A DNA stretch of 64,000 nucleotides from the NCBI GenBank assembly GCA_026770705.1, contig JANJGN010000035.1, forward strand, positions 8,928,001-8,992,000. The letters are read 5' to 3'. Within the stretch, counting starts at the first letter, position 1, and each line of letters opens with the position of its first letter. Shown piece by piece: positions 9,611 through 59,599 of the stretch. The stretch comes from Isurus oxyrinchus. Lineage: Eukaryota. The translations under genes and the position numbers were made by a program. A model generated the notes under the pieces. The model was given only the letters and a program-made list of their open reading frames with translations, made no database searches and was not told the DNA's origin.

Positions 9611-9619
9611 AACAGCCTA

Positions 9620-14052: not shown

Positions 14053-14109
14053 AGCACTGATAAATTACACCAACATTGCCATCCCTGGATACGACGACAG
14101 GCCCACTAG

Positions 14110-32837: not shown

Positions 32838-34299
32838 CACTGTTTAGATGCAAACCTTCCGACTTGTATAAGGCCATTCTCAGTGTTCCAGAAATCAGAA
32901 CCCGTCCATGTTTCATAAACTTTGCAGCCACTCGTTCATTTGCCATATCCTCTGAATTCTGTACACACTGTCACGTGGCAGTGGCAGTAAGCCGGTGACT
33001 ACTACATTTGAGGTTCTGTGCGCGAAATATCTTCCTGGTTCCGGAGAATATGAATCCAGGACCAAATCCCCCTTCCTACATAAGTATGTGGCTCCATTGT
33101 GGACCACAACATAGGCTGAAAACCCCCTGCTGAAGTACTGCCTTGCAGCCGCTCCATGGCATTCTTTACCTTGGCAGCAGGGAGGCAAAATTACACCTTG
33201 GAGTCATGCTTACGGCCAGAGAAACATATTTCTGTTCTATTAACCAATGAATCCACTATCATTAATGTTCTTCATTTCTTCTGGCTCACCTCCCATAAGG
33301 CATTCCGTTTGGGGAGAAGGTGAGGATGTGGTTCCCTTACTGCAGTGCAGTCAGACCCAAGTTTGTGGCAACACGAGCTGGCTTTCCATTTTGGAAGAGT
33401 GGCTCACTCATGTTGCCACAAATTTGCGTCTGTCTGCACTGCCCTAAGGATCCCGCACATTCTTTGCCTTCCAAAACGGGAATCCGATTTTTGAACGGAT
33501 CCCAAGGCACGACCTGCCCACTTATTTTTGGGCAGCCTGGTGGTCATCCATTATGTCCCAGTCTCCAGGCGCTTCATACTCAGTTCAATTGCAATGTTCT
33601 AGTTAACATGAATTGAGATTTATAATCTGCAGCTGGCAAAACTGTCTGTTTTGTCCTCCGTCTCACGTAACACTGTCCCAGATATGTAGGATAATTGAAA
33701 ATGCAACGTAACCCAAAATTATTTGGAATATCTATTGCTTTTAGACGGGATGGTTCACACATATTAATCTCAGTATGCTTGCCTTTTTTATTTACAAACT
33801 CCAGCATATGGTTCCCTGCTGTGGCAGCGTCTTCTTTATGCACTTAATTTAAATATCTGGATCTGAAACATTATCAAACAAATAATTGCAAGCACCTGGC
33901 GAACTGAAAGTCTTTGCCTTCTAATTGACGAGTCAGTGACTACATGCAGGTGCTGAGCTTTGTGAGCTAGCGGCTTGTGCATTAATTGCCTGAACTCACT
34001 CTATCCTGAATAATCTCGATATAATATAACTGTCAATTACTTCCATCTGCCAGCAGCACAGATGTTCCACTTTGAAGATTAAACAATGTTACTCAACATT
34101 GAGCGATGGTGCTGTTGTGGGGTGGCTGGTGGTGGGTGCTGGTTGTAGTAAGTTGGGGATATAGGGTGTGGCAGTTCTGGTAATGAAGACGAAGCAAGGT
34201 GCTCAGAAAAGTGATATACTCGAGCCCAATAAAATAATTAGCGAAGAGCAAATGTGTGAATGATGGTGAAGTACTGTAAACACTGTGGCATTATGACCA

Positions 34300-37200
34300 C
34301 AGCTGGTGTTATGTGCTGAACAAGCCAAGTCCCAAATGAAAACTTGTCTTACTTATCATAAATTTCTTTTGTAGTTTGAAAACAAAGGAACGAACAATTG
34401 ATCCGAAAATCATAGATTTCCAGCAAAACGTTTAAATTTCTAAACCTATTAGAACTAAGAAAACATATTGCAGCAGAAAAGATTAAATTACACACTTGAA
34501 AAAAATCATTACCACTCCCGCCACCACCCCGGTCGCCCAACCCCCTCCCCGCATCAACCAATCTCCATCGCCCCTTCCCCCTGCCCCCCCCCCCCCCCCC
34601 CCCCGCCCCCCCAATAACATAAAAAAAACACTTGGTAGCCACAAGGTTTTAAACTACCTGGTAATCTGCCTGGCAACGGCTCCCTTATAGATTGTGAACA
34701 ATAAAAACCCATCAGCATTATCCAAGGCAAAACTTGGCTAAAAGGTATAGCAAATGACTTTTTAATCTCTTCCAATCAACTGTGGAAATTGAAAAGTGTT
34801 CAGAAGTAAAGCTGAATGAAAACAAGTATGTTTTTTTTCGCCTTGAAAGCGGATGACTCCTTAAAATTCAGTTTTTTTTTCGGCAGAGAGATGATCTCCG
34901 GCCGTCAACCACACACAGCCACACAACTCAGCTCAACATCTTTCCTTAAATGTAATCTCCGCCCTACTTCTTGGATTCTGATATTCACAACACCTCTTTG
35001 AGCTCAACGTTTTTCAAAGGATAACAATGCTTAATGCCACTTTTGGAATAATAAAATTTAATATTTTTCCTATTTAAATTTATGAAACATTTGAATTTTG
35101 CAAAAGTCCATTTTGAAAGCTAACAGCTCAAAAGTCAAGCCTCTTCCTGTCACGGTAATAAAAGTTTAAAAAACAAGCTATTTACTTGGAAATCTAATCC
35201 ACCAGATCCTCTCCACAATAATGCATGCAACCAATAGCTATACCTTTCTTTCCTTAGTTCCAACAAAACCGCTGTCTTACTAGCCTTCCACCAGTTTAAT
35301 TAATCATGGACAGGCACCCACACACACACGGATACGCATACACTGCAGCCTTCACAGAATTTCACCATTTTCCTCAAAATATTAAACAAATATCATTTTG
35401 TAAGATACATTTAAATTTGCCCTAGTTAGCTCACATGCCCTACAGAATCTTTCTCTCGAATTTTCCTCTTAACCTAGAAGAACTGTTTCAGAACTTTGTT
35501 TTACTATGTTTCCTGAATGAGTTTGAGTGCCCCCCTTAGGTCCTCACCATACGTTGACTCGAAAGTAATGAACTCTGCTGACTCAGAGTGCCTAATGGCA
35601 AACATGAATAATCGAACACATCATGTTGAATCATTTGGACAGTCTTGACTATTTGCTCTATTCCTAGTCTTTAAAATGTGATGCCACTTTTCTAAAGCAC
35701 CTTGTGACACTAAGTGACAGGCTGACGACCTACATTGCTTTAATCATAGGCTGTTCATTACATATTTAAACATCTATCACATAAAATTTGAACACTGATC
35801 CGACGGGAAAATTTTGACAACCTCTAATTGTCTAAAATTTTCGGCCTTCACTCTAACCAACCTTTTGAATTATCCCGTAAATGTGTTGCATCTGGTAACT
35901 TTTTGGGCGTATCAATGATTATCAGTAAATATTGATACGCACTTCTCACATTTTGGGGCTGATCCTGCACAATTCATGGGGAAGCTTCCAAAAGGTTCAT
36001 GAAGCGCTGACTTGGAATTAGGTAAGCTTTAAGTTAGGCTACAAGTTTTACTATTAATTGACATGTGTGCCATGGTTGACAGCATTTAATCATCTTTATG
36101 CATTTCAGGAAATAAAACTAATAAATGTTAGTGCATTATTTTCATAATTCCCACATGCCCAAACATTAGATTTTCACGAGCCACACTTACAAGTTCATTC
36201 GGGTGCATTCAGATAACCCCACTTGTTACACTTTGGCCTACATTTCATCTTCTGAGAGGTTAGGCACTATTCGCATCAAATTTAAAATATTTTCTTAAAG
36301 GTAAGAACAATTTGGAATGTGTTCTCCCTCTGTTTCTGAATATCCAGTATTATATAATGTTATTACTAATTAAGTCTGGATCGTGCTGCAGTAATTTCAC
36401 TAACATCAATGAACTTAGCTCCTTAGCCTTATCTTCATTAACCTTCTCTTTCTGACGAACAGTATTCAAATATTGGTCCAGACAACAGAGGCCCAGAACA
36501 AAAACAGAATTACCTGGAAAACCTCAGCAGGTTTGGCAGCATCGGCGGAGAAGAAACGAGATGATGTTTCGAGTCCTTATGACCCTTCGATGATGCTGCC
36601 AGACCTGCTGAGTTTTTCCGGGTACTTCTGTTTTTGTTTTGGATTTCTAGCATCTGCAGGTTTTTTTTTGTTTTTAACAGAGGCCCAGTACGTCCCTTTT
36701 CTTTTATATTCATTGTCTTGCTGTTTCAGCCTCTGTGTCTGTCAACTCGACACCGTAAAATCTGGAAATAATCCTGTATATGCTTTCTGATGAATGCATC
36801 ACGACAAGTTCCCCTCTTTAGCAGGGGTAGTCAATGTATGCATCTCAAAATTTTATTTCCTGGATTAAATGGTCAAGTTATTGACCGCTCCATCAAATCA
36901 ACTCTCTTGTGTCAATTTGATTCTTATACTTTACATTATGTAACGAAATTGGTTTGATTCGGATGTGAAATAAACTAACTAACACTTTTCCTGCAACAAG
37001 CCTTCTGAACAGTAGGTAGCATAAGATACATGACTGGATAGTTCCTGCTTTTCCTTCGATCTTAGCAGTCTTTCCTGCTCTTCCTGGAACACACTGTTAA
37101 AATTTACCTTTCAATATAAAATCGTGAAATACCTCTGTTACTTGCCATTCAGAACACCCTGGACTAGTATATGAGCATAATCCGATTTCTCAGGCTAATG

Positions 37201-37900
37201 ACTCTTCCTTATTCACTTGTAAAAACGTGATTGGCTTGTCTTGCATTTGGTTCTCATCGCCTATAGCACTTTACCCGCAGTAGCCTCCTGAGTTCATATC
37301 ACTGCAACTGTCCCATTTAACTGCGAACAGTTTGATTTTGTATGTCCAGACTTGCTACAATGCTGACATATTACTTACCTTAGTTCACCTTTGTCTTATA
37401 TATATCCATCTTTAACAGATGGCAATCCTCCAACAGGCGCTTTGTTACTTACCTTTTGCAATACCTACGATTCTTGCTGCCTCCCATTTCTTCGTTTTCC
37501 TTCACTCAGTAGTCTGTTTGAAACATTTAACTATTGCCTTTAATAGCTGCCTCTCCAATCTTTTAACTGTCTCCAACATCCAAATATGCCGTGAAAGGGT
37601 TAGGCGCCTGGATGGCAGCTGTGCACAGTTATTCCTCGACCCACTGTTCCACAGTTCGTTACACAATTTTACCTACAAAATTGTCCCTTTTTTAACAATC
37701 ATGTCTTTATTCCGAAGATGAAGTGACTGGGATCTTTCTTCTTTCAGTAAACACAAAAGAACTGTTTCTTTATTATAAAACATTTCCAAATACAAGTTAA
37801 TAAACTGATTTACAGACAATCCGTGGTTTAGAATTGCAAGGATTTTCCCCTTTTGAAAGAAGCTCATATTCCAGCATCATACACTGTCACATGACACAAA
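34300..37900 (-). mobile_element. Decayed Gypsy (Gmr1-like) LTR retrotransposon: gag and integrase remnants
   Basis: Minus strand reads CQPWHTCQ (integrase zinc finger) near 36070 and HEPFGSFPMNCAGSAPK/YQYLLIIID near 35900-36010. A gag-like region lies at 37100-37700. Confidence 0.7.
36497..36675. mobile_element. 179-bp fold-back Penelope-tail insertion with a perfect 13-bp TSD
   Basis: aacagaggcccag occurs at 36484-36496 and 36676-36688. The internal arms are reverse complements of each other. Confidence 0.9.
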
Positions 37901-38940
37901 ATAAGAAAACTCTTCCCAACTTCCTTGACCACTTCCAAGAGCCCAGCTATTACTTCTGGAATGATACATTCTCATAGCATCCCCACAACAGATGTCAAGC
38001 TAACTAGCCTATAGTTTCTTGCTTTCTGCCTGTGTTCCATCTTGAACAGAGGGTTTATATTTGCCATCGTCCAATCTGATGGCATGTTTCCAGATTCTAG
38101 CGAATTTTGGAAAATTAGCACCAGCAGATCGGCTACCTCATTAGCTGCTTCTTTTAGTACCCTAGAATGTAATCTATCGGGACCCGCAGAGTTACCAGCC
38201 TGCAGCTCCATCAATGTGTTTAGTACCTTTCCCTGAGCGATTTCAATTTCACCAACTTGATTTCTGCAGTTCAGCTCCTGATTGGCAGCTAATATTTGTA
38301 TGTGTTTTATTTTATCCTCCACAATGAAACCTTAAGCAAAATATTTGTTCATTTCTTCTGTCATTTCCTTCTTATCTACTATTATCTCCATGTGGTCACT
38401 CTCAAGTGGAAGGATGCACACTTTACATCCTCTTTTCCTTGTTTAATGCCTACAGAAGCACTTCCTATCAGTTTTTACATGTGTAGCTAACTTCCTCTCA
38501 TATTACAAATTATTTTTCCTGATTAACCTTTTAGTAATGATCTGCCATTATTTATATTCTGTCCAATCATCTGTCCTGCCACTTAGCTTTGCAGAATTGT
38601 TTGATTTTTTCCTTACGTTTGACGCTTCCCTTACTATGCTTAGTTAACCACCACATGGTGGGTTCATTTGTCATTATTTTCTTCTTTATAGTTGAAATGT
38701 ACTTTCCCGAAATAACCCGAAGTATCCCAATAATTGTCTGCCAATGCTTCTCTATTGATCAGTCCTCTAAGCTAGTTATGCTGTTCACTTCAGCTAGATT
38801 AGCGATCTCCCCAACATAGTTGTCCTTACTAAACATTAAACTCTGGACTTAGACCCACAGCTCCGCTTCGAAATCTGTAAATTTTAATCATATTGTGGTC
38901 ACAGCGACTAGGGGTGCCTTTACCCTGAAGTCATTAATTA
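37900..38940 (-). mobile_element. CR1 ORF2 fragment
   Basis: SAGPDRLHSRVLKE...NYRLVSLTSVVG. Confidence 0.88.
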
Positions 38941-38944
38941 ACGC

Positions 38945-39570
38945 CCATGTTTGAAATGATTCCGTGAGTCTTCATGGCGTTCGGACTCAATGTTAAGTGC
39001 TCGCAGAGCAATTCCCTGCCGACTGCATTCCACTGAGACGCAACCTCTGCTTCGTGTGGCCTGCAGCGGGGCCAGACACCGGAATGGTGATGGTGGTGTC
39101 TGGGACAGGCTATTTCAGGTATAATACTTGAAGATTCCAATGGCAGGCTGTTGCCTAACAAATCGGTGAGAGAACGCTGCATGTTCCTCTCTCAAGTTTT
39201 TGTATGGAGGACCTTGATGGGTCGACAGGGCTGCGATTGCCATTGTCATTCGCAGTGCCTAGTTCGATGCCACGGGATCCTTCTGCTTTCTTTCATTTTT
39301 TGCAAGTTTATAGCAATGAATTGCATGCCAGGCCATTTCAGAGCCAACCACGTTGAGGTAGGTCTGAAGTCATTTGTAGGCCAGACCACGCAATGAAGGC
39401 AGGTTTCGTTCCCAAACAGGCATTATTGAATCAGTTGTTTTTTTTTATTACAAAAACGTTATTTTTTAACTTAAATTACTAATGCACCATTGGGATTCGA
39501 ATACTGTCACCAACATACGTATTTTGTACTTCTGGCTATTTATTCATTGACAATACTCCAGACGTCAAAA
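38945..39570 (-). mobile_element. LINE-B 5' end (tRNA-like head, body and EN start)
   Basis: On the minus strand: B-box-like ttcgaatccc near 39495, the short-element body, ccctgtcgaccc, then caacagcctg (EN start). Confidence 0.65.
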
Positions 39571-39599
39571 AGTCCATGCCTGTGCTGTACATCTTTACC

Positions 39600-39790
39600 T
39601 ACATATTATTCAATATTTGCAACACATCAATCTTCTGGTCTACACGTTTTGTCTGATTATCGTGTGCCATCTTACTTATGGTCCTAAAATATGAGGATAC
39701 ACTCCATCAGGATTAAAGGTTTTATGAACCCTGGCTTTAATTATTTTTATAATACTGATAGCATTTAAATTATAAGTGGTTCTAACTTTT
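39600..39790 (+). pseudogene. Degenerate CARD-like exon, half A
   Basis: Reads LHVLSDYRV/LMVLKYEDTLHQD. Confidence 0.45.
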
Positions 39791-40223
39791 TTTTTATCTA
39801 TTATACTTATACACTTTTTTCCTGATCCGCCCTTTTGCAAAATAGTGAAGTATAACATTGATCAAATGTATAAACATGTTTAACTTTTCGATTCGACCCC
39901 CGTAATCATAACCTTACCATGAAATGGTAACGCAAATTCCTTCCAAATATTCCTTTTTTGTTCAGTCTGCAGCAGAATTTAAAATTCTATTTCTGTTCCT
40001 TGATAAGTATTTTCATGCTCCCTCTTTCCCTTATGACTTGCATTTTTACATATAATTCTCAGCATTTTTGCATTTCCACTGTCATGCAGTCCGCTGTGCT
40101 GACGAAACGTATAACAAATATATCCTAACTCGTCATGTCTCCCGGGTGCTTAATTTTACTGTGCCACATTCATGTTTAATACTAACAGTTTTGATGTAAT
40201 ATGTTGTTATCTAACGCTTTTAG

Positions 40224-40658
40224 ACACGCATTCAATGCTTATATTTCCAATTCTAAATATTGTCCAAATTGCTCTCTATCTCCTGTCTAGATTACTATAA
40301 ACAGCCTCTCAAAGCAGATTTTTCATTTAATCTAGTGAAATGGGTTTTCATGTGCCTTTTATTTCCAAATTATATCTTTAACTCTACTGTATTATGCACA
40401 TCATTGCCAATGGTAAAGTTCGGTTTGTGTGTGTGTTTGGGTGCGGAAGTGGGAGTGGGGTGGGGAGATGAGGGGCGGGGTTGTAGGTGGCGCCAGAAGG
40501 CGGTGTAAGTTGAGTGGACAGACGCTATTCTGGATTCTCCCGGTTTCGGATGGATTCAGGACCTGCCTCATTGCCGTACCCGTCGTGGACTTAATTGTTT
40601 TGTGGTTAACACCTGCCTTCAGCTTAAAACGAAAAATCAATAGCTCGATTGAATAATG
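40224..40658 (+). pseudogene. Degenerate CARD-like unit: half A 40224-40412, half B 40487-40658, 74-bp intron
   Basis: Both exons have AG/GT boundaries. Half A reads DTHSMLIFPILNIVQIALYLLSR/YYKQPLKADFSFNLVKWVFMCLLFPNYIFNS. Half B reads GVS*VDRRYSGFSRFRMDS/...LIVLW. Confidence 0.65.
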
Positions 40659-40874
40659 GTAATTGCCTTTTGGATAAAGGAACACGTATAAAATACTCGG
40701 TCCTATGAAGCTATAATTTTACTGTGGAACATTTGTGTTCATTTATAAAATCTTCACAGTGTTCTAATGGGCCTGATTCGTTAACACTATTTTTAAACCT
40801 CCACATTTGATGGGTAAACTGCTGAATATTTACACATTTTTTGATTGTTTATTTCACTTTTCAATGATTCGCAG

Positions 40875-41877
40875 AATGCTGCTGTAATGTGATACGCTGT
40901 TCTTCGGATACAGTTTGGGCACTACAATGGTATCATTGAGTTAAGATAGATGTCAGGTCCACGTGATTCTCTTCATTTTAGAAGAAGATACCCTGGGCAA
41001 AGTCCGTTTATACCCCACGTCATTCCACAGGCAGCAGTCAATAATTTATAGTGCGGGGTAATCCTCGATCTCTGTCATAACCTGCATCCTTGAAACCCTC
41101 AGAGATCTCGAAGTTCCTCACATTCTGTCGCCTTTCCGATTTCCAAATTTTTGTGCCCCAACAATGACAAATTATTTTTTTTATCTCTGATGAATTATCA
41201 CAGTTCTGAAGAAGTAATGTGCTTCCCGCCTCCTCAGATGCTTCCCAATCTGCTGGGTGCTGTCATTATGTTTATGATAGATAGAAGGCCGTTCTCTGGA
41301 ATGCCTATGCACGCAACTTTAGAATTTAATCGGCAAACATCTCCAAATTTCCATTGCTATACATGCATTTTTGTCATTGGACCAAAAGTGTGGTTACCTA
41401 TTAAAATTACTTTGTGCATCTTGGTGATAAATTGTGCTAGATAATTTCTCTTAAGAAGCATATGTCGGAGTTTTCATGTTTTTAAAGCGAGGTAATAGTG
41501 CAGTGTTTTTTTTTTTGCATTCGACTTATATTCGATTTCTCTTCTTCGAAGCCATTATTTTCTGCAGTAGCATCCGACATGTAGTTTTTTAAACATCACT
41601 ATACGAAAGAAAGGGATAAATAGATCAATGGTTCTTTTTCAATTTGTGCATTGCATGATTTACTACCGTTGCAGTATGTGTTAATGCAATCAGAATCCTA
41701 GCTGAAAGTCTGCCCAGATGGACGTTGCACGAATGATTATCGATACACTTCGAGTCAAGGGAGCTCACAGTGAAAGAACATTGTGGGCGCTACTTGAAAA
41801 GCTGCAGGAAAGCAAGTGTAAAGGGACATGACCAGAGATGAATAGGTCAGGCGCATGGACAGGAAGTTACCTGAAAG
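40875..41877 (+). pseudogene. Degenerate CARD-like unit: half A 40875-41057, half B 41675-41877
   Basis: Canonical splice sites. Half A reads NVIRCSSDTVWALQ/MVSL...ILEEDTLGKVRL. Half B reads KSAQMDVARMIIDTLRVKGAHSERTLWALLEKLQES, a typical CARD D-x-A-R-x-(L/I)-I-D-x-x-x-x-K-G motif, and ends in phase 1 at G|gtaggc. Confidence 0.75.
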
Positions 41878-41954
41878 GTAGGCGGCATCCAAAACAAACT
41901 TGACAGAGGCAATTTTCCACATTAAAACAAGAACCTTATTTAGGAGGACATTAG

Positions 41955-42063
41955 TGTTATTGTTGCTATTATTATTATTACTGCCATTAGCAGTAATAGT
42001 AGTAGTATTACTATTGTTATTATTTTTATTATTATTATTATTGTCATCATCATCATCATCACT
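41955..42063. repeat. Compound (TAT)n/(TAG)n/(CAT)n microsatellite
   Basis: Directly visible in the sequence. Confidence 0.9.
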
Positions 42064-42109
42064 ATTCTAATATGTCTATGAGTCTAAGAGAATCAAGCAC
42101 CATTTTCTT

Positions 42110-42415
42110 CCCAATCCAAAAATTACCTTGAAGTTAATGCCCACCAGGTCTCTTGCTCCACGGCTGGCGATTTGTATCCTGCAGTTACCTGGGGTTAATA
42201 TCTCGGTTTCTCTCCCTCTTATCCGCCTCTCTATCTCGCTTTCCACTTTTAAGATGCCTCGTAAAGCCTACTTCTTTGGTGAATCTATTGATCACCTGGT
42301 CTAATGCCTCCATCTGCGACTAGATCTCGTATATCTTATTAATGCTGCTGTCAAGCTCTTTTGGAATATTTCATTACATTAGACGCACTTTAGAACTATC
42401 ACTTGTTGTTAATAA
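42110..42415 (+). mobile_element. L2-like LINE 3' end
   Basis: ccgcctctctatctcgctttccacttttaagatgcctcgtaaagcc...ttacattagacgcacttta...ttgttgtt tail. Confidence 0.55.
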
Positions 42416-42476
42416 TGGTGTAGTTAATACCTATAGTTTATTTATAGAGGGTGTTCCGTTGTAAATTCTAATTCAG

Positions 42477-42940
42477 TGGGTTGCAATATATCTGCTACAT
42501 AATTTGCGGGCAAATCAATTCTAATGACATTATTGGAACTAAATAGCCAGCAGGGGCACAGCAGGCAATCGAAAGTATTGACGCTGCAATAGTGTTGGTG
42601 CGCATTGCAAATTCATCACATACGCTATTCTATAGCTGAAGCATTAATAATATCCCAATAAGTGGTAATAATAATTCAAATTCAGTAATGACAGGTTAAG
42701 TATGTTTCGTAACAGGCTGTTTGCATTGAATGATTTAGCTGTCACGCCTTAGCAAAGTTTTAGAACGAGATTGCATCTGAAGCAGACAAAGTTATTCTGT
42801 GAATCTCCCCCTGGTTAAACCGTCAGTATATTGACAACCGGGCGTTTTCAATAATCATAGTGCAATGCTGTAATAGCCCTTGTTGCCGCTTCTCTTACCC
42901 ATGACGTTTGTCCTCATGCCTCATAAAACATTTATGGTGC
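42477..42940 (+). pseudogene. Degenerate CARD-like unit: half A 42477-42664, half B 42764-~42940, 99-bp intron
   Basis: The half-A exon is 188 nt, consistent with phase 1 to 0, and reads IYLLHNLRANQF/AQQAIESIDAAIVL. Half B reads NEIASEADK.../THDVCPH. Confidence 0.55.
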
Positions 42941-43087
42941 TGACTTGCATAATTTACACTTCTTTTTTAAATGATCCATGGCAATGCAAAGCGCTATTTT
43001 TGATGCCAGATGTATTTTAATTAAAAATGTTAATCCTTAGGCCTTTGCACTTGCGCTTTTTAGTGCAAAGTGCAAATAACAATTAAG

Positions 43088-43370
43088 AGTCATAGAATAA
43101 CAGTACAAAAAAGGCTCTTTGGTCCATCGAGTCTGCAGAGACATGTGCGCAACACCTGCCCTACCTACTTAATCTTTTTTTTTGCAATTGGTCCATATCC
43201 TTGAATATTATGACGTGCCAAGTGCTCATCCAGGTGCTTCTGTAAAGTATTTGAGGCAATCCGCTTCCAGAACCCTCCCTGGCAAAGCATTCAAGACCCT
43301 CAGCACACTCTGTGTAAAAGCATTTTTCCTCACATAGCCCCTAAACGTCCTGTTCTGCACCTTGAGCTTT
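43088..43370 (-). mobile_element. CR1 3' end
   Basis: catagaa...ggctctttggtccatcgagtctgc is the reverse complement of the CR1 tail. Confidence 0.85.
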
Positions 43371-43551
43371 CAAAGAAAACAATTTATTTACATTATTTAT
43401 AGTCTCTTTGGAAAAACCAGCAGAAGACATTAATATCCCTAACTCTCTAATATCATCTAGTAAATGCATTGATTACAAATATGTTGGATTACTTTATTGA
43501 CGCTTTTATGAATGCTGCACTCGACTTTGAACTACCCATTTTAAACTTCAG

Positions 43552-43930
43552 GTTGCCATCAGCTTTACTTGAATCCAAAATACACACGCTTCTTACCCAA
43601 AACAATAATCACGCAATTCGTCTTAAAGATATACAAGCATCGCCAGTTCATTTCTACATTCTGCGACCTATCCAGATTGCTGCATTCCCGTTCCTTCCAC
43701 CACTTCCTGTTCCCTGGAAAACAGCAGTTCTTTTTCTCCAGGCTCCAAAGAAAACGCCCAGCCACCAGCCCTGTAGTGTTTCTATTGCCACAAATGTCTC
43801 TTTTTCTTCCTTATTTAAATTACACTCGGTATTTTCCAAAGCTTGTCCGGGTCTTAACAACTCGATGAAAATGAGGCCGCATTATTTGATCTTCCCTACA
43901 TGGAGAGGCGCCACTAGTCATTTCATCGCT
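43552..43930 (+). pseudogene. Degenerate CARD-like unit
   Basis: Acceptor ends at 43551. Reads ESKIHTLLTQNNNHAIRL/KIYKHRQFISTFCDLSRL, then SSLFKLHSVFSKACPGLNNSMKMR. This accounts for ORFs 43469..43939 and 43569..43868. Confidence 0.6.
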
Positions 43931-44015
43931 ATAAAATAAATTCAAACATCAATGCTCAGGCTCCTCCCAATTATATTAATTGTACTTTAATTTGTCCCCT
44001 GTTTAACTTTTGCAG

Positions 44016-44370
44016 CACATACAAATACTAAAATCTTACAAATGCTGGCGGTGTTCAGGGATGTTCAGTTGCATAGAATTACTACTGTGTTCCGTGATGC
44101 ATAAGAACAGTCAATTCAAGAAATCGTTGAAGCATTTAGTGAGTCGCTCGCACGGGCAAAAGTGTTGACTGAAGCAGATCATAAGTTAGGTTACATTTTG
44201 CTGGACCTACTTTAGGTGTTAAGTGATTCATACGGATGGCTGCATAGACTGAATATTTTCGATGCAATTTAGAGACAGAAACTCTACCAAAGCCTTATAG
44301 ATTTTTTGATCTGTAATTGCTGCCTTGTGCCATAACAGCCATTATTTAAATTGCATTTATGAGACCTTCT
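44016..44370 (+). pseudogene. CARD-like exon, best-preserved whole unit
   Basis: Acceptor aacttttgcag (44015). Phase-1 reading is HTNTKILQMLAVFRDVQLHRITTVFRDA*EQSIQEIVEAFSESLARAKVLTEADHK...NIFDAI*R/NSTKAL*IF*SVIAALCHNSHYLNCIYE. Confidence 0.78.
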
Positions 44371-46220
44371 TGTGAAAAAGTTTTTATTTCCTGCAATTGT
44401 CAATAAATGAATTGAAAGTACATGAACAGTGCGCTTCATGTTATAACATAAACTCTATTTGTCAGGTTCCAAAGCTCTACTAAATGGCATGTATGACTCC
44501 CAGTATTGACCTACATTTTCGATTATCGGGAACACCCCAGGATGTCATGGAATGAAATGTTGTGAAAGTCAAAATTGCAAATTTTGCAACATCCACCAAC
44601 AGCACAGCAGCATTTACGTGCCTGTGAATAGATTAAAAAAAGAGTGAAAGATGCCGACTTCTTATATGAAGCGAATAAATTCACTGCAGGAAACAAAGTA
44701 TACTGTCTAAATCAATGCACAATCAACTCCTCGAATTTCCAGCCCTTCTCGTACAAACAATTAAACGTTTCTGTTAAGAAGCAAATTGATAGAAATCTAC
44801 CAGTTGAAACAATTTATAAAAAATGTCCCCTTAAATATGTAACACTACACTTTCATGACGACGTCGATTCTCTGTCAGACTCTTTTGTGTCACTGACCAA
44901 TACAACATTCACTGAAATTCGCTTGATCATTTCCAATTTGTGCCATTCAACTTTCCTGTAGTGCCTTGCGATCTTTCCAAATTATTAATCTTATTATTGG
45001 CGACAATGAATTATTTTCGTAGAATCCTTTTCCTCCAATCACACGCTTCTCCAATTTTTAAAAGAGCTCATAAGATATACTATACTCCTCACGACTATTA
45101 ATTGATCAGTTATGGCAAGCGTTTAACTTGAAAATATTCTGTGTACCCCAAATAAGTAACCATTGTCCAAGACTGCACTGATTTAGTGATATGATATTGC
45201 TGTTCTGTGTAATTAAAAGGTCATATTTTGAATACCTTTTCCGAGCTCTCTTAGTAAAATAAATTAATCTGGAATTGTTAATAAATGAATTAAAGGGAAA
45301 AGAACAGAGTAACATATTCTCGAGCACAAATATGATAGATTTATGTGTGTACTACTGTTCTAAGAATGCTGCTTATAGGTTATCGTTTGGAATTGCTAAG
45401 TAAACATTGTACACTAAAGGGAATCCTTCGTATTTTTAAAGTGAACCAACACATGCTAAAATTAAAAAAAATAGTTTTTAAAATACAGTTTCACCAAGTC
45501 AATGCTCCAAAGGAGAAACGCGACACACGAGTGTGAACTGAGTAAAACTTGCAAGGGAGAGACGTTCAGCGGCAATACAATCGCCTGAATCGAGCCACAT
45601 TAATCTCTTGAGGGCAGCTGTATAATTACATGCAATTTATCATAGCCATACCTCTTGCATTTAAGTCAATTTCATCCCTCTTAATTTGGAAATGGTTCAC
45701 GTGACTCCAGATTATGGATGATATAGAACTTTTATGGCATCCATAAGTAGAAGAGTTAACAAATATTTCATGATTACGAGGGATGACCCAAGGTATTTGA
45801 ATGAATAATTTTAAAAGGCAACATTGAAATCGTATGAATCATGAGCCAACAACATCACAAGTGGGATTCCACGACGTTGTTCAAACAAGCAACACGGACA
45901 AACATCCCTACGTGGAAAAGAAACTGTCCAAAAGAAAGTTAAGTGTCAAAATTAATACGTGTTTGAAGAACAGAACTGCATCTATTCTCTCTCAGAAAGC
46001 CCTGTTTTTTACAATAAACCACAGACTGAAGTAGGCACTGCCAGCTGCACAAATTAATAAAGACGTCTTCCAAACTCACATCTTTCATCTTAATGAAAAT
46101 GTCTTCCATACTATATAATAGTCAACTAGTTTAATTTGACGGCCTGAACAAAGACTTGTTAAGATTTTTTTTCAAAGCATCACTCATAATTATAGCATTA
46201 CTTTGTCGATTTACCTTCCA

Positions 46221-46617
46221 GCAATTGCATAAAAGCAGCCACAAACCACACCCAACCCCATTTTGTCAGCAATTTATTCCGTGAGATCTCATTTCTGATA
46301 ATTTGCAATTATCCTCACTGAGAAATGTCACTATTTGCTATGACAGTGATTTCATCCAGCCTTGGTTCAGCCAAAGTAATTTGTGCCTCTCACATTCTGG
46401 ACTTATGTGACATTCTTGCCACCAGCATTAGTTGCCTTGTGTTCAAACACCAAATCAGCGCAATCAGGCAGAAAATGTAGCACATATTCAGAAGGTATTT
46501 CGGAATGTGGGGAAGATAAATTGGTTCTGGTTTGAAGTCTTCCATCAGAACAAAAAAGCTTTAGAAATTAAATATTATCAACCATGTGAAGAGTTAGACA
46601 ATAGCGTCAGAGCAGGG
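46221..46617 (+). pseudogene. Degenerate CARD-like exon, whole unit
   Basis: Acceptor ccttccag and donor gtatga (46618). Reads ISDNLQLSSLRNVTICYDSDFIQ...NQRNQAENVAHIQKVFRNVGKINWFWFE. Confidence 0.5.
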
Positions 46618-46928
46618 GTATGACATATGATTCCACCCCTGGTCGATCATCCAGTCGAAGACAGGTGAAGTAAAATAGCCAAATTTATCACCATTAAATT
46701 TAAAACACGATGGTAATGGGAAAAAAAGGAAAAAAAAATAAGCAGTCTTTTGGAGCTAAGAAAATAGCAATGGGCAGAGCACTTCGGTAGAAGTTGTTAT
46801 TAGGGTCTCTATCAGAGTTTTTACAGCAGTGGAAAGGTAGCTCGGAGATTTCGAATGTGTTTAGTAAGAGCTAAACAATAAATTAGTAGTAAATTGGTGT
46901 TTTTGTCAGAGTCGTTGATTTTTCACAG

Positions 46929-47380
46929 ATGTTCAGTTGGGAATTGCTGTAAAAAGAGCCATGCTGTTCAAAACGGCTTGCACACGTCGGGACAAACAGG
47001 AGAGTGAAAAATGTCAAAGGTCAAAAAAGCTTCAGGTTCCTTTGAAAGGGGGGTTGCTGATTGGTTCGCAAGTGAACTCTGTTTCGTTTGTTGAACCATT
47101 GCCATTGAGAAAGTGCAAGGTAACTATTTCCACCCTATCCAGAACCCCAACCCTCACAGTTACATTTTATTTGAAAAATATGGCGCGATGCCTGGATGTA
47201 TTCATTTTGCCTACAGGTGACAGTCGATTGTTCATAAATGTACATCATGCAAGCAACAGTAAGGGAAATACAAAGCAGGCCTGTCAGTGTAATTCTTGTC
47301 ACTCTCTGGATTCTTCAGCAACTGCAGTAAAATCGTGGAACTCCTTCTACTGTTAGATATTATGTTTTGAGTTTTGTATT
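46929..47380 (+). pseudogene. Degenerate CARD-like unit: half A 46929-47119, half B 47217-~47380, 97-bp intron
   Basis: Strong sites tttcacag|, AAG|gtaact and gcctacag|. The half-A exon is 191 nt and open in phase 1 to 0. Half B reads DSRLFINV...SKGNTKQACQ/VILVTLWILQQLQ. Confidence 0.65.
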
Positions 47381-47749
47381 AACAAGCATGTAGGCTGGTC
47401 CAACGCTCTGCTTCTTAGCAAGAAGGCAGGGACGTGCTGTTTTGCCACATCCGGCAGTCTTTTGGACATATGGCCTGCGGACCTGTCATCACAGTGACAC
47501 TGCAATTTAAATTGCACATTCCCACGTTGGTGAGGTACGCAGAACATCTACTTTTTGGCTTCGTGCATGGATTCCTTCAGTGCCAAATCACAACCATGTT
47601 ATTATTCTCCGGTAGCTTTAAGTTACTTTGCAAAATGTATGGTAATTTCGAAAATATGAATCGTAAATCAAAAAATACCAATTCTATGCATCTAAGAATA
47701 TTGTGAATTTGTATTGAAACAAATAATGGCAGACAATTAATGTCTAGAA

Positions 47750-48550
47750 TTTAGAGGATACGTGTACAATTTACAACAAACAAAATATACATAAACTTAA
47801 AGCACAGAAGGTCCACAGGCGAATTAAAAATAACAGCATTGTTATAAGGACGTAAATGTGATAGAATAAGGACAAGTTGTTGAAGGCAAATTAGAGCCAC
47901 ACACTAGTACATTTTGAAATAATGATGGGTAATGAAGCAATAGCAGAGGCAATAAACAAAGACGGCGTATCTGCCTTCATGAAATTTGACACAAAATAAA
48001 AATCAGGAAAGAATAAGAAACCATGGATTGACTGACGACAAACATGAAATAAGTCGGTAAAATTTCAGTAATATTGCTGAACCAATGAAAGTGATTTAGC
48101 ACTGATAACTACCTTGAAAGTGATGTCATGCATTCTTGATATTTCAAGTAGGTTGATGCCGATATGGTTGGTGCATATCGTTTTGATATTCCAAACTTTC
48201 CAATATTCCAGAATGTTTCCCAAGGATTGAAAGGTGAGAAACATGACATTGCTAATTAAGAAGGAGAGAAAGCGAGATTCTAGATGATAGTCTAGGAGCG
48301 TTAATGATTAGTGACAAAATGTTACAATCTATCAATGGAAATTAGTTATGAAAACAACACAGACAATCATTATATTTTATTCATTGTCAACAATAACATT
48401 ACCAAGAAATTTGCGTTTGACAAATGTAGGTTTGATGAAGTAACCATTGAATGGCGAATTGGGAACAAAAAGATGTAGCACATTTCGATATTTTTTTTTC
48501 GAAAGGTGCAGATGATGTTGTTCCAAGTAAGAGACCATTGAAAAACAATT
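47750..48550 (+). mobile_element. Old CR1 ORF2 fragment
   Basis: Decayed pre-RT and RT motifs (FQTFQYSRMFPKD*KV; DVAHFDI). Confidence 0.55.
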
Positions 48551-48559
48551 GGGATCCCG

Positions 48560-48727
48560 CACAACCCACCCCCCATCCCCACCTAAATCCAACTTATATA
48601 TCACCCCTTCCTTGGATTCACCTAGTTCTATCGAAGGTTCAGGAGGACTCGAAAGTCAACTCTTTTCTTCTCCGCCGATGCTGCCAGACCTGCTCAGTTT
48701 TTCCAGGTAATTCTGTTTTTTTGTTTT
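48560..48727 (+). mobile_element. Penelope 3' pseudo-LTR fragment
   Basis: Matches 32640-32800 and 61450-61610. Confidence 0.85.
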
Positions 48728-49199
48728 CTATCTACATTGTTTGCTCTGTCATCGGAAGAAAACACATTCCCCGACACGAATTTCATTTTGAACACATTTG
48801 TTTTCCTTGTACTCATTGTAAGATTTCAGAATGCTTCGTGAAATGTTCCCTCTTTTAAAAATTATAGGTCTGTAGTTTCGGCTGCATTTTTGTGTACGTT
48901 GGTATTATATTTGTTAATGTTCAAATGCTGGTATCGTTCTAGGGAAAATTTGACTTGATATCAATTTCATGCAATGGCGTAACACTACTGTCTCTCGCAG
49001 ACGGCAGGTTCCTTACCAGACGTTGGTGGCATTCCGGCATCCGGGTGGCATAGGGGAGGACCCGATGATACGTTATTTGCTGCAAAATAGCAACAAAGGC
49101 TTTGCATAATATCATCCCTTCCAATGCGCTAAAGAATACGCTCCCAAACCAGCATTAATTTCTCCAAAAAGTATTGCCACTGATGATGACTTTGGTTGG

Positions 49200-50050
49200 T
49201 GTTCTCAATGCGATCATGCCAGCTTCGCCTAATGTGGGTGCTGTGGAGGCTTAAAAATCACGGGCCCGCAGCACTAATCAATTTCATTAAGGGGGAATTA
49301 ATGCACCAATGGCTAGGTGAGTTTTACGCTTTACATAAAGTATTATGGGCCGTGAGGATGCCGTGCGCTGATTATGGTGTCATTGAGCCAATGTCAACAA
49401 GACGGGAAGCATCGCCCATTATTAAGTATCAATTTAAAAGACAAATCAGCTAATTAGTTGCAGACCTCAGTGCAATAATATGTTCAGAGGGCAGTTCTAC
49501 GTCTTCAAGGCAAGATCTTCGACGGGAAGGGGGAATTTTTGCATGGCCAGGTTATTTGGACGGGGTATAAAACTCCGTCTAGCACTAGATGATCAGCTTT
49601 GCAAGGGAGACATTATCGAGTGAGGAGACTGCTCATTTTGGTGGACAGAGGATTTTTTTTAGCTTTTCTCATGAGGAGAACTTGCCTCCAATTCAGAGGG
49701 GTCTTTTGATGTAGCATTTTTATGTCCGTAATGCAGGGGTGAAAGCATAATAGTGTCCAGGATGGATGGGGATTATGTTTCAGATGCAGAGTCCACCTCC
49801 TGTAAGGGGAAGAGAAGGATTAAGAGGAGGCAGCGAAGATGGATGAGAGGACGAAGGAAATAGAGGGAGGCTCATGAAGCTGTAGTTCCTCAGCATATGG
49901 ACAGAGGAGTTCTAGAATCTGAGAGCGAGGAACAACCTAAGAATCATCAGCAGAGTCTTATGTCACCCCAATGTTTTATAGACGGATATCTAGCTACCCA
50001 AAACAGACCTCATCAGATAATTGAGCCTTTTCCTCGCACTGGGATCAAGC
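49200..50050 (+). mobile_element. Possible PIF/Harbinger-like DNA-transposon relic
   Basis: A ttaaaaatcacgggccc-type terminal region, a purine-rich tract, then a CFYRRISSY-like segment. Weak evidence. Confidence 0.3.
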
Positions 50051-50482
50051 CCTCCTTCCTATCTTAATACAACTTACCATCTACTCTTCTGTACCTGCTG
50101 AATTACAAGTAAACACTGGACATAGATTTTAAGTAATTAATCCTGGAATACTGAGATGAGGAAACATTTTTTCAGCAACGTGGTAGGACTGTGGAACTCA
50201 GTATGTGACTGGGCTGTGAGGCAGAAAGCCACGTCACATTAGTTACCGTCTTTGACATATAATTCAAGAGCTTTGTTCTTCTGGACACGGTTCTTTTACG
50301 GGAAACTGGAATTAGCCTCGCCAACAATTTATGATTAGCACCATTTAGGAAGGCCGTAAGGCTTCCTGTGCTACAGATGTCAGATGGCTATATGCCTCCT
50401 GATCAGTCAGGCATGAAATCTATGGGTTTTCAAATTCCCATTGAATGTGATATTTGACATATTGGTTTTGAGGTTTTGACAG

Positions 50483-51190
50483 CGAAGAAACGGCACAGTC
50501 AAACCTATTAAACATCACTATATATTTGCCCAAAATTTGATCTAGAAAGATACTTTTCACCAGAAATTCAGCAGATGGCAGTTACGTATAATGCCATCTG
50601 CACCACATAAAAGATAAGCCAAGACCTGCATATGCAACTCCAATGGGATTAATTTGATTTTTTATCAGAAGTTCAAGCATATTCTGTGGGATTTATATTC
50701 CGCTTGAATTGCTATGTGAACTGATGGTGATAAAATATTAAGATCATAATTCGGGAGTGTGCAGTGGCGGGCGGGGGGGTGGGGGGGAGGTGTGGGGGTG
50801 GATACATGATAATCTCCGTACTTGCGTCCTATAGGGTTGAATATAGTTGTCGGGTGACATGGCTGTAGACCATTTCGCAAGAGTAGAAAAAAAATGCATA
50901 GGGGCGGGGTGGGTGGGGATGGGGATGGGCGATAATTTGCAATATTTCATGTGGGACAATCAAATAGGTAGAACACCTAAACTGTGTATGAGGAGATGTG
51001 AAGCACGTTCAAACGTTGGACTTCGAAGGCAAGAATCTCTCGATCCTTGACAGGCCACACATCCATTAGCATAGGGTGAAGAACATTATGTACATAAAGG
51101 CATCGCTCAAATTTTGGCAGATGAAGCATGGGTTTCAATGAGTTCGACACTAATCTGGAACCGTTACCCTACTTTTTGTATTTGCAGCAT
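50483..51190 (+). pseudogene. Degenerate CARD-like unit: half A 50483-~50715, half B 50968-~51190
   Basis: Half A reads QKFSRWQLRIMPSAPHKR*AKTCICNSNGINLIFYQKFKHILWDLY. Half B reads KHVQTLDFEGK...SLKFWQMKHGFQ. Confidence 0.65.
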
Positions 51191-51249
51191 TTATCTCGGA
51201 TTGTTTTCGTACACTGGTGAATTGTGCATTGGGTGTTGTGGAGTAGACT

Positions 51250-53800
51250 TTAATCTAATGGAGAGCGGCGAGAGGGTTTGCTGGTGGCTTGACTGTGAGG
51301 TAGAATGCCGTGTTGAGGTGATGGGAAATTTAAAAATTCAAACAGACAATTCAAGTATTTGCACAGTATAGTGATCTTGTCAAAGGCAAGGTGAGTGGTA
51401 CTGGATGGAAAATATAGCCTAACCGCAATTATTTGTAAGAGATTAATATCCATGTAGCAACGAGTAGTAGATAAGACGTCTAAAACTGAAGATTAGTTAT
51501 CAGGATGCGTGAAATATCCGCAATAAGGAAGGAAAGATACAAACAGAAAAAGAGTCATAATATAGAGGTAATCTCCTTCGAGGAGAAATAAAAAATTGCA
51601 AATAAATCTGAGAACTACTCCAGTTATAAATGGTTTTGTAAAGACAGATGGAATGGAGAAAGATGATTAGTAATATGGTTAGAAATAATTGTTAAAACTA
51701 CAATGAGTAGCAGTGAATAATGACAAATACATTAGTAAGATTGTTCAAAAGAGTGCTAACTTGAATAAATATAGCTGGGGATGATGAATGATCAGAGTCA
51801 GAAATCACTACTGGGAATGGCCAACAGGGAACAGAAGGACAGTATTATATTTGGAAGAAACATTAGACAAAAGTATGAAGCTTATAGCAATGGTTAATTA
51901 ATGACTGTAGACCAAAATAATCCTCATATTCAGTGAACTAATCAAATTCAAAATGGTTCTTTAGAAGATGTGAAGTAAAATATTTTCTTCCAGAATGCGT
52001 TATGGTACAAAATAGTCATAATTACAATCCATATTTATGTTAAATATAAAATAAAATACAACATAGTTATATTAGATATTTAGATAATATATTTTGAAAT
52101 GAGGATTTCTAATTTGGTCTTCTCATAACTAAAATATCCTTTGGGAAAAGTGATCATAAATCAATTCAATTTTCTGTTAATATTGAAAGTGATAAGATCT
52201 AATCACAAGGAGGAAGTAAGCAAAGCGAAGCAAATAGGTACGAGTGGAGAACTGGGTGAGGTTAATGCAATAAATGAACTGAAATCTGTCATTAATTAAA
52301 TGGCGGAAGACAGTTACAGGAAAAAAATAAACAGTTAAAGCATACAACAAAATACATTTCTTTGAAGAACGTAAATGCAGCAAAGAATCATACATCAATG
52401 ACTCGCTCAGGCAATTAAGGATACTATTAAATTAAATGTGGAGGTCTATGCTAATTCAAAGATTAATGACAAAGGATTGGAGTGGTTCAAACAATTGTTG
52501 TTAACTTCGGAGCAGAGGCATGAATTAAGTCATTATATACGAAATGGTAAAGAGAACTAGATAACAAAAATAGTACATAATGCCCCAAATTCCAATGCCC
52601 CGATGGACACTAAGGTGGCGAGCTAAAAGACATGGGTGCAGTGAATTCACACAATTTCCTAAATTCGGCAAGGGCAACAACAAGTTGGTTTCTGAAACTG
52701 TGCTATTCAAGAACGGAGGGACATAGAGAAAGAGGAAAAAAACCAAACAAGCTATTCATTTGTTGGGTGGCATCATTCATCACAAAAATGTTGGGATCGA
52801 TAATTATGGACTTCTTAAAACTGCACCAAGAAAATGGGAGTCTGTGCCGATAAAATCAGTATGCTTTGACGAAAGGCCAAATTTGTTTGAGTGTTTTGGG
52901 TTTTTTTTAGGGGTAGATGAAGGTGCGCAGATTAGTTTACCTGGAATACCAAGAATGCCTTCGATAACCAATAACCAATATGAGAAAACAATAATATGAA
53001 ACTAAAAGACTTGTGGAGTTGTAAATGTGGCATAGTATTAACATGGGCAACGGATTAGTTCAGGAACAGAAAATAATCATTAGATCTAAATGGGGCATTA
53101 TCAAGTTTGCAAGATGTTACATGTAAGGTGCCACAATGACAAGTGCTATTGTCTCTGTTAGGTTTTTAGGTGTTCGGATATTGAACCATGAAATATATCA
53201 TCCAGGCACCGCAAGCAATTAAGAAGGAAAGTTTCAAGCTGCCATTTATTTCAACGGCATGTGTCTGCACTAACAATGTTGCTGAGGCTGCAAGAGGTAT
53301 TCCCTTTGCAATTTTAGTCTTCATATTTCCCGAGCGATATATTTGCTTTGAAGACGGCATGGAAAATGTTCCCTAGATGGTTCCCTGGGCTAAGTTGTTT
53401 GTGCTGTGATGAGTAAATTAGTTTATAGGGCCTTTGTTCTCTGAAAACTTTGAAAAATGAGAGCTGCCCTAATGGAAAAATATAAAATTCTGCAGGGGCT
53501 AGACACGGCAATCAATGAGAGGTTCGTTCTTTTCCCTCGTGTCAATATAAATCGAGGGTGCATCCCCAGGTTTAGGTAGTCATCATTTAGGGCTGTGATG
53601 AGGAAACATTTTTCTCCTCTTAGTGTTGTGAATCGTTCAAATTCTATAACCCAAACATTCGCGGAAGTTACATTTTTTAACGCATTGAAAGTGTGAATGA
53701 GCAATTGTTGGTTTGTCAGGAAACCGAGTATATGTAGAGTCGGCGGTAAAGTGCAGTTGAACCCCAAGGTCAAACGTGATTTATTTCTGTAGCTAAGACG
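51250..53800 (+). mobile_element. Highly decayed, AT-rich CR1 ORF2 through to the 3' end
   Basis: Residual EN and RT motifs, and the 3' tttagggctgtgatgaggaaacatttttt segment. Confidence 0.65.
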
Positions 53801-54143
53801 ATGCAATGAGCATATGGTCAGCTAGCGCTCGTAATTTTTTTGAGACGCTGTGTTGCAATCGCCTGTTTTTGCATGAATATTTGATCTTGAAAAACCAAAA
53901 ATATACATTCAGTTTCCGCTTAGTAGCCCATAGATTTTGAATGATTCGAGACAAAAAACGCGTATCTGTACATGCCACATCAGTGAGGCGTGGCCTGTGT
54001 GGAAATCATTGCTTTGTCATCTTTGAAAATAAAATGTACGTCACTCACGCATGTTTCAACCAATTATGCTGGTTTGCTGGAAAGAGTCAATTGCTTCCAT
54101 TGTACCACCCCTCTGCCTTTCCCTTTCTGATCGTCCTTCGCAG

Positions 54144-54530
54144 GTGGGTCTCTTTTACGACCAGCTACAATACTCCCAGTTGCCCAAATAGGTTTGAGAT
54201 GTATTGAAATTGTTGTCACCAGAACATGCCTAGGCAGTAATGATCTATTGTTGTCAAATTGCAAAGCGCTCCCGCGTACAATGTTTCGTGTTGCACTGGC
54301 ACTTATGCACAGCAAGATTCCATTTCCTAGTTTTTCTCACTTGTTGTGTTGTTGTGCAATGTGCAACAAAAACTAAGATGAATGTATGAACACCCGAAAA
54401 ATGTTAGGGGAATCAGTCCATGGATAGACCTCGTGCATGCTGAACATTGCAGACCTGCCAGACCTATAGGTTCTTTTCCAGTTCCATGACTGATCCCACT
54501 GATTTGGATTGTCCATCAAAAATAAACAAC
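54144..54530 (+). pseudogene. Degenerate CARD-like exon, whole unit in a single frame
   Basis: Strong acceptor (54143). Phase-1 reading is PVAQIGLRCIE...RTMFRVALALMHSKIPFP...KN*DECMNTRKMLGESVHG*TSC...VLFQFHD. Confidence 0.6.
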
Positions 54531-54899
54531 TAATCAGTGTACAATCTCTCAAGCCCCTTCCAAACTTGCATGTCCACAAATAATTATCTTTCTTTAATCC
54601 AATCACCAGAGTGTACTGGCACAATCTGCTCATTCTCCTGATTCCTTTCAGCCATGTTATTACAAGCAACAAAATGATTCCGACTGTTGAAAAAAATCAT
54701 ATAATTAGATGTAGAGTTCTTAATTAACACAGTCATCATTTTGTCATCTCCAGAAAGGGCAAAGGTATGGATGTAAGACTTCATTTTAATTCAAAGTCAT
54801 TTCTCTCGAAAGATAGGCTAATATGCGACTTTCTCTTTTTATCACTTGAGGCAATTAAATGCTTACTTTTCATCTTCTATCCACGAGCACAGCTGGACT

Positions 54900-56660: not shown

Positions 56661-56789
56661 GCAAATTTTAAATCTAAGCTATTCATTGGCATCTCAAACC
56701 TAGCACTTCCAACCCCTTAATGTTTTAAAGCCCCAAACAACCACACTCAGGTTAAGCTTGCACATCTTAAGAAATTCACACACACATAA

Positions 56790-56947
56790 NNNNNNNNNNN
56801 NNNNNNNNNNNNNNNNNNNNNNNNNNNNNNNNNNNNNNNNNNNNNNNNNNNNNNNNNNNNNNNNNNNNNNNNNNNNNNNNNNNNNNNNNNNNNNNNNNNN
56901 NNNNNNNNNNNNNNNNNNNNNNNNNNNNNNNNNNNNNNNNNNNNNNN
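56790..56947. other. Assembly gap (158 N)
   Basis: Run of n. Confidence 1.
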
Positions 56948-56949
56948 CC

Positions 56950-57330: not shown

Positions 57331-57472
57331 ATTGAGATCTCCGTTATCAAGAACCTTTGAAAATCCTGTTATATTGTTTCCACTGCTTGCCCTTTATATA
57401 TCCCTTTCGTTATGTCTTCATCAAATCTCGAATGCATTTTTTAATCATGGTTTCCCTTTTGTACAACCATAG

Positions 57473-59460: not shown

Positions 59461-59599
59461 TAATATCGGAAGATGAACAGTCATACTTCAAGAAATGACT
59501 TCACATTCTCAATCACAATTTCCTAATTACTACTTATGTTTTTTACACTCTAGTATTATAATATAAATTGCATGCATTCACTTGAAAATAGGCCCAAGG

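Follow-up and report, generated by a model that had tools for sequence, protein, structure and literature searches.

NLRs are innate immune sensors that detect cytosolic signals and oligomerise by means of their leucine-rich repeats (LRRs) and NACHT domain, and the mammalian NLRs and sensors that bear CARDs include NOD1 and NLRC4, as well as NOD2 and RIG-I/MDA5, which have two. In sharks and rays, the closest described genes are RefSeq models named "NACHT, LRR and PYD domains-containing protein 3-like", in which one N-terminal module occurs in 1 to 4 copies. The present work concerns a stretch of 64,000 nucleotides of the Isurus oxyrinchus genome (hereafter the window: positions 8928001-8992000 of contig JANJGN010000035.1, here C35, in a genome of 4.98 Gb) which carries parts of the same module. 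What survives in the window is very probably a pair of broken exons (B1 and A2) from an NLRP3-like NLR gene of sharks, in a copy that is likely to be a dead pseudogene.

Examples of the shark and ray models are Mustelus asterias XP_078087540.1 (three modules and a NACHT domain), Pristis pectinata XP_051865185.1, Scyliorhinus torazame GCB66031.1 and, from the basking shark, Cetorhinus maximus LOC144671995. The basking shark model has the order exon 1, A1, B1, A2, B2, as in the family (A and B denote the first and second halves of a module), whereas of the window copy only a broken remnant of two exons is left. In these models the automatic name specifies a PYD, but the predicted fold of the module ranks CARDs far above the PYD, and a predicted CARD fold ahead of NACHT and LRRs would resemble the arrangement of the NOD1/NLRC4 type. 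Unlike the mammalian CARD sensors, the intact-looking paralogue described below has three modules, each spread over two exons, with a predicted extra helix before the CARD core, and the identity of the module to solved CARDs is only ~10-20%. An NLRP-related NLR family with NACHT domains nearest those of the NLRPs is described as expanded in the whale shark, in passages of a paper that reads such clades as products of birth-and-death or concerted evolution (PMC8455134); those passages do not describe the N-terminal domain or the exon structure. In the titles and abstract openings of the literature searched there is no description of the module or of the cluster in which it occurs.

Translation of the copies revealed two segments, the A and B halves, with open frames in most paralogues. 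DNA profiles were built from 19 A-half and 16 B-half copies, with the window and its closest copy (at 9.63 Mb of C35) excluded from the building, and each profile gives a single match in the 64 kb: 44003-44194 for the A half (E 1.4e-40) and 41669-41870 for the B half (E 4.5e-31). The next-best matches have E values of 0.45 and 7.1, against 1.7 and 2.7 in a reversed-window control, and decayed copies that were not used in training are recovered by the same profiles with E values of 1e-11 to 1e-28. Protein profiles, and tblastn with 71 shark and ray proteins, place module exons at the same two sites only. The window therefore holds one A half and one B half, from different modules (B1, then A2), and the initial annotation's dense core of about eight A+B units in 7.4 kb is not borne out by the profiles, the 71-protein search or comparison of the window with itself. 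In the last of these, a blastn search, the segments quoted as units do not match one another and only transposon pieces do. The features of the gene copy are as follows.

5390..48558, + strand: copy of a tandemly duplicated gene unit, comprising the upstream region and 5' part of a three-CARD NLR gene (by colinearity with other C35 copies)
41686..41841, + strand: B1, a broken exon of phase 0 to 1 that forms the second half of CARD-like module 1 (profile E 4.5e-31)
41842..41879, + strand: 36-nucleotide in-phase extension of B1 up to a GT at 41878 (GT in 7/8 paralogues)
44016..44185, + strand: A2, a broken exon of 170 nucleotides and phase 1 to 0 that forms the first half of CARD-like module 2 (profile E 1.4e-40)

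DNA searches show that the gene-unit copy is colinear with C35:9.59-9.64 Mb at 77-86% identity, and that the region from 5.4 to 48.6 kb is partly colinear, at 63-72%, with copies at 6.7, 7.3, 7.8, 9.0, 9.3 and 9.45 Mb. B1 and A2 have ~78% DNA identity to the complete gene at 6.73-6.80 Mb, with their order and flanking introns kept. Because the window exons are homologous to, and colinear with, those of a complete family gene, descent from the shark NLRP3-like multi-CARD NLR family follows. The two exons are 64-67% identical to the basking shark gene model, with B1 at 67%, and A2 is matched by 19 of the 71 shark and ray proteins in tblastn. Identity among distant copies is 0.77 in B1 and 0.80 in A2, compared with 0.70 in the flanks of each.

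In B1 both the acceptor and the donor read AT, the length is 156 nucleotides rather than 157 (one base lost), and a TGA stands at 41829-41831; in A2 the acceptor is intact, the donor reads TT, and there is a TAA at 44102-44104. Three of the four splice sites are gone, in addition to the frameshift and stops. Among the paralogues, B1 is 157 nucleotides long in 6/8, stop-free in 5/8, and has AG in 6/8 and GT in 7/8, while A2 is 170 nucleotides long in 6/8 and stop-free in 5/8, with AG in 8/8 and GT in 5/8. The segment that the initial annotation ended at the donor at 41878 is a genuine B-half exon, and the GT there is a possible second donor of B1, to judge from the sequence; extension to it gains one stop in 1/5 open copies, and the upstream donor is apparently the one used in the basking shark gene model. 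An open frame, a start exon and working splice sites are all wanting in the window copy. NACHT searches give no match within the window or onward to 9.157 Mb, where the match belongs to the next copy, and since the window has no NACHT exon the copy is a remnant, incomplete as an NLR. Module, NACHT and LRR matches are absent from 8.868 Mb to B1 and from A2 to the A1 of the next gene (9.043 Mb), and no B2, A3, B3, NACHT or LRR exon follows the end of the gene copy at 48.56 kb over the distance to that A1. The remnant is very probably without function, and it is likely an ordinary dead copy inside a large gene cluster. It is a further member of an already known NLR family and of itself adds nothing new; as a locus it matters little, since duplication and loss keep this NLR cluster in turnover and the remnant is just another of its dead copies.

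The structure from which the remnant derives can be read from the intact-looking paralogue at C35:6727971-6804113. The order in this gene is exon 1 (with ATG, ending in phase 1), A1, B1, A2, B2, A3, B3, NACHT and two LRR exons.

6727971-6728088 of C35: exon 1 of the paralogue (open frame and match to the basking shark protein)

The module exons measure 158 (A1), 157 (B1), 170 (A2), 172 (B2), 170 (A3) and 172 nucleotides (B3). All six have AG/GT ends and no stops, and their phases run 1-0, 0-1 three times before a phase-1 NACHT exon of ~1.7 kb with a 617-codon open frame. This large exon matches PF05729 (NACHT) at E 2.6e-32, together with NOD2_WH and NLRC4_HD2, and its best solved relative is NLRP3 (E 2.8e-30), so that it resembles the NLRP-related family of the whale shark as presented in the passages cited above (PMC8455134), a likeness drawn from the nearest structure rather than from a tree. 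The two LRR exons are the only ones found by tblastn, and a regular-expression search for LRRs gave none that was real. The RNA contigs that align to the paralogue cover, apart from repeats, no more than a short part of A3, which has a loose end, and are uninformative on expression. The region upstream of the gene (6681000-6712000) is itself duplicated, with a second partial exon 1 at 6700049. The exons of module 1 are short (158 and 157 nucleotides) and the model of the basking shark protein is less confident there, so this module may be a degenerate CARD.

The initial annotation had described each A+B unit as a symmetric phase 1-1 module belonging to a single spliced multi-domain transcript. 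As a model of the family, both parts of this description stand, the symmetry being found in six of six module exons of the paralogue; for the window they do not, since it contains two broken half-exons and is without start, NACHT and LRR exons. With phase 1 at both ends of the module, gain or loss of an exon pair leaves the frame unbroken. Genes with a single module, at 5.11 and 9.71 Mb of C35 and on another contig (C55), have the same module exon ends as the three-module gene at 6.73 Mb.

The prediction for the module is a CARD preceded by one additional helix. When the paralogue's A2 is used as a query, a single database protein is returned, that of the basking shark, at 80% identity, and this protein in turn retrieves 70 representatives, with NACHT or neighbouring domains in 12 of the 17 scanned and a shark or ray origin for the 8 looked up. 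Structures were predicted for the basking shark protein and a single-module relative, not for the broken window exons, with a mean predicted local distance difference test score (pLDDT) of 86.7 and values of 84-98 in module 2 of the basking shark protein. CARDs rank first among the structural matches to these models. They include matches with Z 12.2 with a root-mean-square deviation (rmsd) of 2.0 over 96 residues, Z 12.1 with 1.4 over 80, and Z 11.9 with 2.8 over 89; the leading matches are the CARDs of SP100, ARC, NLRC4, ASC and NOD1 (Z 11-12, rmsd 1.4-3.0), while death domains and PYDs lie at Z ~8 or lower, the PYD of AIM2 scoring 6.7 against 12.2 for a CARD. Residues 2-15 of the model fall outside the matched CARD core. 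The Pfam CARD model is above its cut-off in 1 of 17 relatives and just below it in 2. A search of the PDB sequences with the module profile gave three weak unrelated matches, and a protein atlas search no usable one. Pfam searches of the six frames of 36-50 kb of the window, with stops as X, found no family in any of the six; those of 17 candidate exon frames gave two weak matches (E 0.06 and 0.18), which were dismissed as noise. SRCR, sushi, C-type lectin, split Ig and SEA domains had been considered by eye only and were set aside on the CARD-NLR match.

The history of the window copy is recorded in two breakpoints.

41003..41057, + strand: junction of a ~4.8-kb deletion that removed coding exon 1 and A1 (alignment gap, common to the 9.63-Mb copy)
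48565..48727, strand not assigned: short repeat of high copy number, where the gene copy breaks off on its 3' side (gene alignment stops at 48558; another segment starts at 48722)

At the first, alignments skip from 6727602 to 6732416 of the intact paralogue; the skipped interval, which holds exon 1 and A1, is present in five other copies and absent from the window, and the junction sequence is matched in the 9.63-Mb copy. The lesions common to these two copies are the deletion junction, the AT at the B1 donor, the B1 length of 156 nucleotides and the TT at the A2 donor, and death of the gene before the two split is inferred from them. The 9.63-Mb copy retains B2, A3, B3 and a broken NACHT. 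At the second breakpoint, the repeat was not seen in the stretches examined at the matching ends of the 9.63, 9.36, 7.13 and 8.29 Mb copies, which is the pattern expected if its insertion accompanied the 3' deletion. The sequence of events would then be that repeated head-to-tail duplication on C35 multiplied a unit of tens of kb, that exon 1, A1 and the B1 and A2 donors disappeared from one of the copies, that this crippled copy was duplicated again to give the window and 9.63-Mb copies, and that the window copy probably lost its 3' part after the split, at the junction marked by the short repeat.

The cluster to which the copy belongs is large. The A half has 25 matches in the genome, 23 of them on C35, and the B half 15, with 14 on C35; NACHT matches number 96, of which 30 are on C35, several just downstream of A/B exons. 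Both strands of C35 between 0.63 and 9.71 Mb carry NACHT matches, 27 in all, and many of these contain stops or have only a short open frame; together they form a multi-megabase NLR cluster, and many near-identical 588-codon NACHT frames occur on small contigs such as C55, C62, C65 and C79. The number of A halves per protein in other sharks and rays (71 proteins) is 1 in 63, with 2, 3 and 4 found in 5, 2 and 1 proteins. By analogy with known sensors, live members of the family would sense signals in the cytosol, form oligomers through NACHT and signal onward by CARD-CARD contacts; ASC, a caspase or RIPK2 are examples of CARD-bearing partners that their clustered CARDs might recruit. A wider proposal, which we offer tentatively and consider rather doubtful, is that in a shark and ray NLR lineage the CARD and its extra leading helix are encoded by a symmetric cassette of two exons, that gain, loss or skipping of exon pairs adjusts the number of CARDs from gene to gene (1 or 3 on C35, and up to 4 A halves in other species), and that multi-CARD sensors nucleate signalling filaments with a threshold set by module number. 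The lead here lies outside the window, in an apparently intact three-CARD NLR from a family automatically annotated as PYD-bearing, though its module is predicted to be a CARD, and such a gene would allow tests of signalling by shark NLRP-like sensors.

Two other explanations of the window must be weighed. It is very improbable that transcription of the remnant continues, whether it yields a non-coding RNA or supplies upstream exons, by splicing, to the next NLR gene (9.04-9.16 Mb). The intact A2 acceptor, the GT at 41878, the two splice signals at 40224-40412 and the retained upstream region would suit such a role, but the B1 acceptor and A2 donor are lost, both exons contain stops, a whole second duplicated segment intervenes, and the NACHT alignment of the downstream gene is interrupted by 10 stops. 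RNA contigs (four runs, at most two samples) that align to 38-50 kb lie mainly at repeat positions, with no junction among the exons, and are uninformative on expression. In that next gene, at C35:9047782-9057023, the B1 stretch occurs twice, 7.6 kb apart, with identical alignments, so that one B half follows another and the chain of phases is interrupted; the doubling is either a recent duplication or an assembly fault.

The other explanation is that the stretch is a dense array of about eight very old A+B modules which have decayed beyond the sight of profiles. The segments which the initial annotation quoted as exons of such an array, other than the one ending at 41878, are these.

40224..40412, + strand: proposed half A, non-coding; counterpart ~1 kb upstream of the paralogue's start codon (no profile match)
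42477..42664, + strand: proposed half A, intron sequence (no profile match)
46929..47119, + strand: proposed half A, piece of a dispersed repeat at 46943-47135 (DNA matches; no profile match)
57971..58160, + strand: proposed half B, non-coding part of the second duplicated segment (no profile match)

AG and GT do stand at the ends of all four (189, 188, 191 and 190 nucleotides respectively), and there is a GT at 41878. The four segments are nevertheless non-coding, which makes four of the five quoted exons so, and none of the three A segments is the genuine A exon at 44016-44185. The paralogues of 40224-40412 are 180-202 nucleotides long, with 2-4 stops in the tested frame in 6/6, AG in 5/6, GT in 5/6, and indels of 1, 7 and 13 nucleotides; identity is 0.72, against 0.70 and 0.64 in the flanks. 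A conserved ATG close to the donor led to this segment being considered as a first coding exon too; in the paralogue, however, a better exon 1 is found 1 kb further downstream, where the frame is open and the basking shark protein matches. For 42477-42664 the paralogues measure 183-190 nucleotides, GT is kept in 1/6, all six have 1-5 stops, and identity is 0.74 against 0.76 in the flank. DNA matches to 46929-47119 lie on other contigs in 29 of 32 cases, the longer ones at ~68%; its paralogues (178-191 nucleotides) have AG in 3/5, GT in 2/5 and 1-4 stops in 5/5, an open frame and good donor are found in the window copy only, and identity is 0.84 against 0.79 in the flank, from two aligned copies only. 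At 57971-58160, GT is present in 2/5 paralogues, indels of 1, 7 and 9 nucleotides occur, and identity is 0.73 against 0.74 and 0.77 in the flanks. Since segments of this kind lack an open, conserved frame, their "phase" is undefined.

A comparison with random AG/GT pairs had been suggested as a check. In 200 dinucleotide shuffles of 40224-47640, AG..GT pairs 180-200 nucleotides apart number 32.9 +/- 6.5 (minimum 17), of which 11.0 have a length of 2 modulo 3, so that chance alone yields more than eight candidates; the reverse complement of the core has 21 pairs. Segments of ~190 nucleotides bounded by AG and GT are thus plentiful by chance and were the source of the false array, and the locus is useful as a correction on this point. 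The core is indeed poor in transposable elements, as had been claimed, with repeats covering 6.4% of it against 30.8% in the rest of the window, figures which are lower bounds because the repeat library is 166 kb of non-paralogous loci. A decayed array, already largely refuted, is scarcely credible: the AG and GT at the quoted ends, the repeat-poor core, the surplus of AG..GT pairs over the shuffles and the existence of proteins with up to 4 A halves are in its favour, but the profiles see untrained decayed copies at E 1e-11 or better and find nothing else in the window above control, the segments are intronic or upstream in the intact paralogue, where stops and frameshifting indels interrupt them, one "unit" is a repeat spread over the genome, tblastn of 9 candidate segments in 3 frames gives a best E of 0.001 on an unrelated frame with no internal periodicity, and the genuine A half is 170 nucleotides long (158 in module 1) as opposed to the 188-191 proposed.

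A number of points weigh against the interpretation of the window as two dead exons of a CARD-bearing NLR gene. The real core has 49 AG..GT pairs (16 with length 2 modulo 3), ~2.5 standard deviations over the shuffles, an excess which is real but small against the eight-unit claim. The segment at 40224-40412, in which AG and GT are both kept in 5/6 paralogues, may from its sequence be a non-coding exon of the 5' untranslated region. The dN/dS of A2, which is 1.06 between the window and the 9.63-Mb copy as against 0.61 pooled over 4 open-frame copies and so speaks for a dead copy, is computed on only 52-56 codons, and single pairs span 0.37-1.15. The order of events is drawn from common lesions and not from a rooted tree, and the paralogue is called intact from DNA alone. 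With regard to the CARD prediction, the basking shark protein matches Pfam CARD (PF00619) at E 8.5e-5 with 22.9 bits, just below the cut-off of 23.9, no single exon reaches that model, and the Foldseek ranks agree with a CARD but with all E values above 0.1. Finally, a Z near 12 is in the tool's warning range for helical bundles, although CARDs fill almost all of the 30 best rows.

The remaining features of the window lie in or beyond the gene copy.

48722..64000, + strand: second duplicated segment (five C35 copies at 74-82%)
42208..42410, strand not assigned: old dispersed repeat in an intron (~70% matches on many contigs)
43090..43369, strand not assigned: high-copy short interspersed repeat, SINE-like by size (~280-nucleotide matches at 80-81% on many contigs; 3031 first-look candidates)

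Profiles and tblastn find no A, B, NACHT or LRR exon in the second segment, copies of which are at 7.13, 7.79, 8.21, 8.30 and 9.29 Mb of C35. In two of the five copies the segment continues into a damaged NACHT from a different subfamily, whose identity to that of the three-CARD gene is 31-36%, and one frame over 57971-58140 is largely open in most of them. A run of 158 N lies at window positions 56790-56947. Elsewhere in the family, strongly hydrophobic N-terminal segments precede the three near-identical modules in residues 1-134 of Mustelus asterias XP_078087540.1, and such a segment is present in 2 of 49 N-termini scanned. Decayed retrotransposon pieces with reverse transcriptase-like frames occur in the window at 0.4-1.6 kb, 17.5-19.9 kb, 30450-32800 and 60435-61610, and are presumably of the Penelope-like and LINE-like classes.

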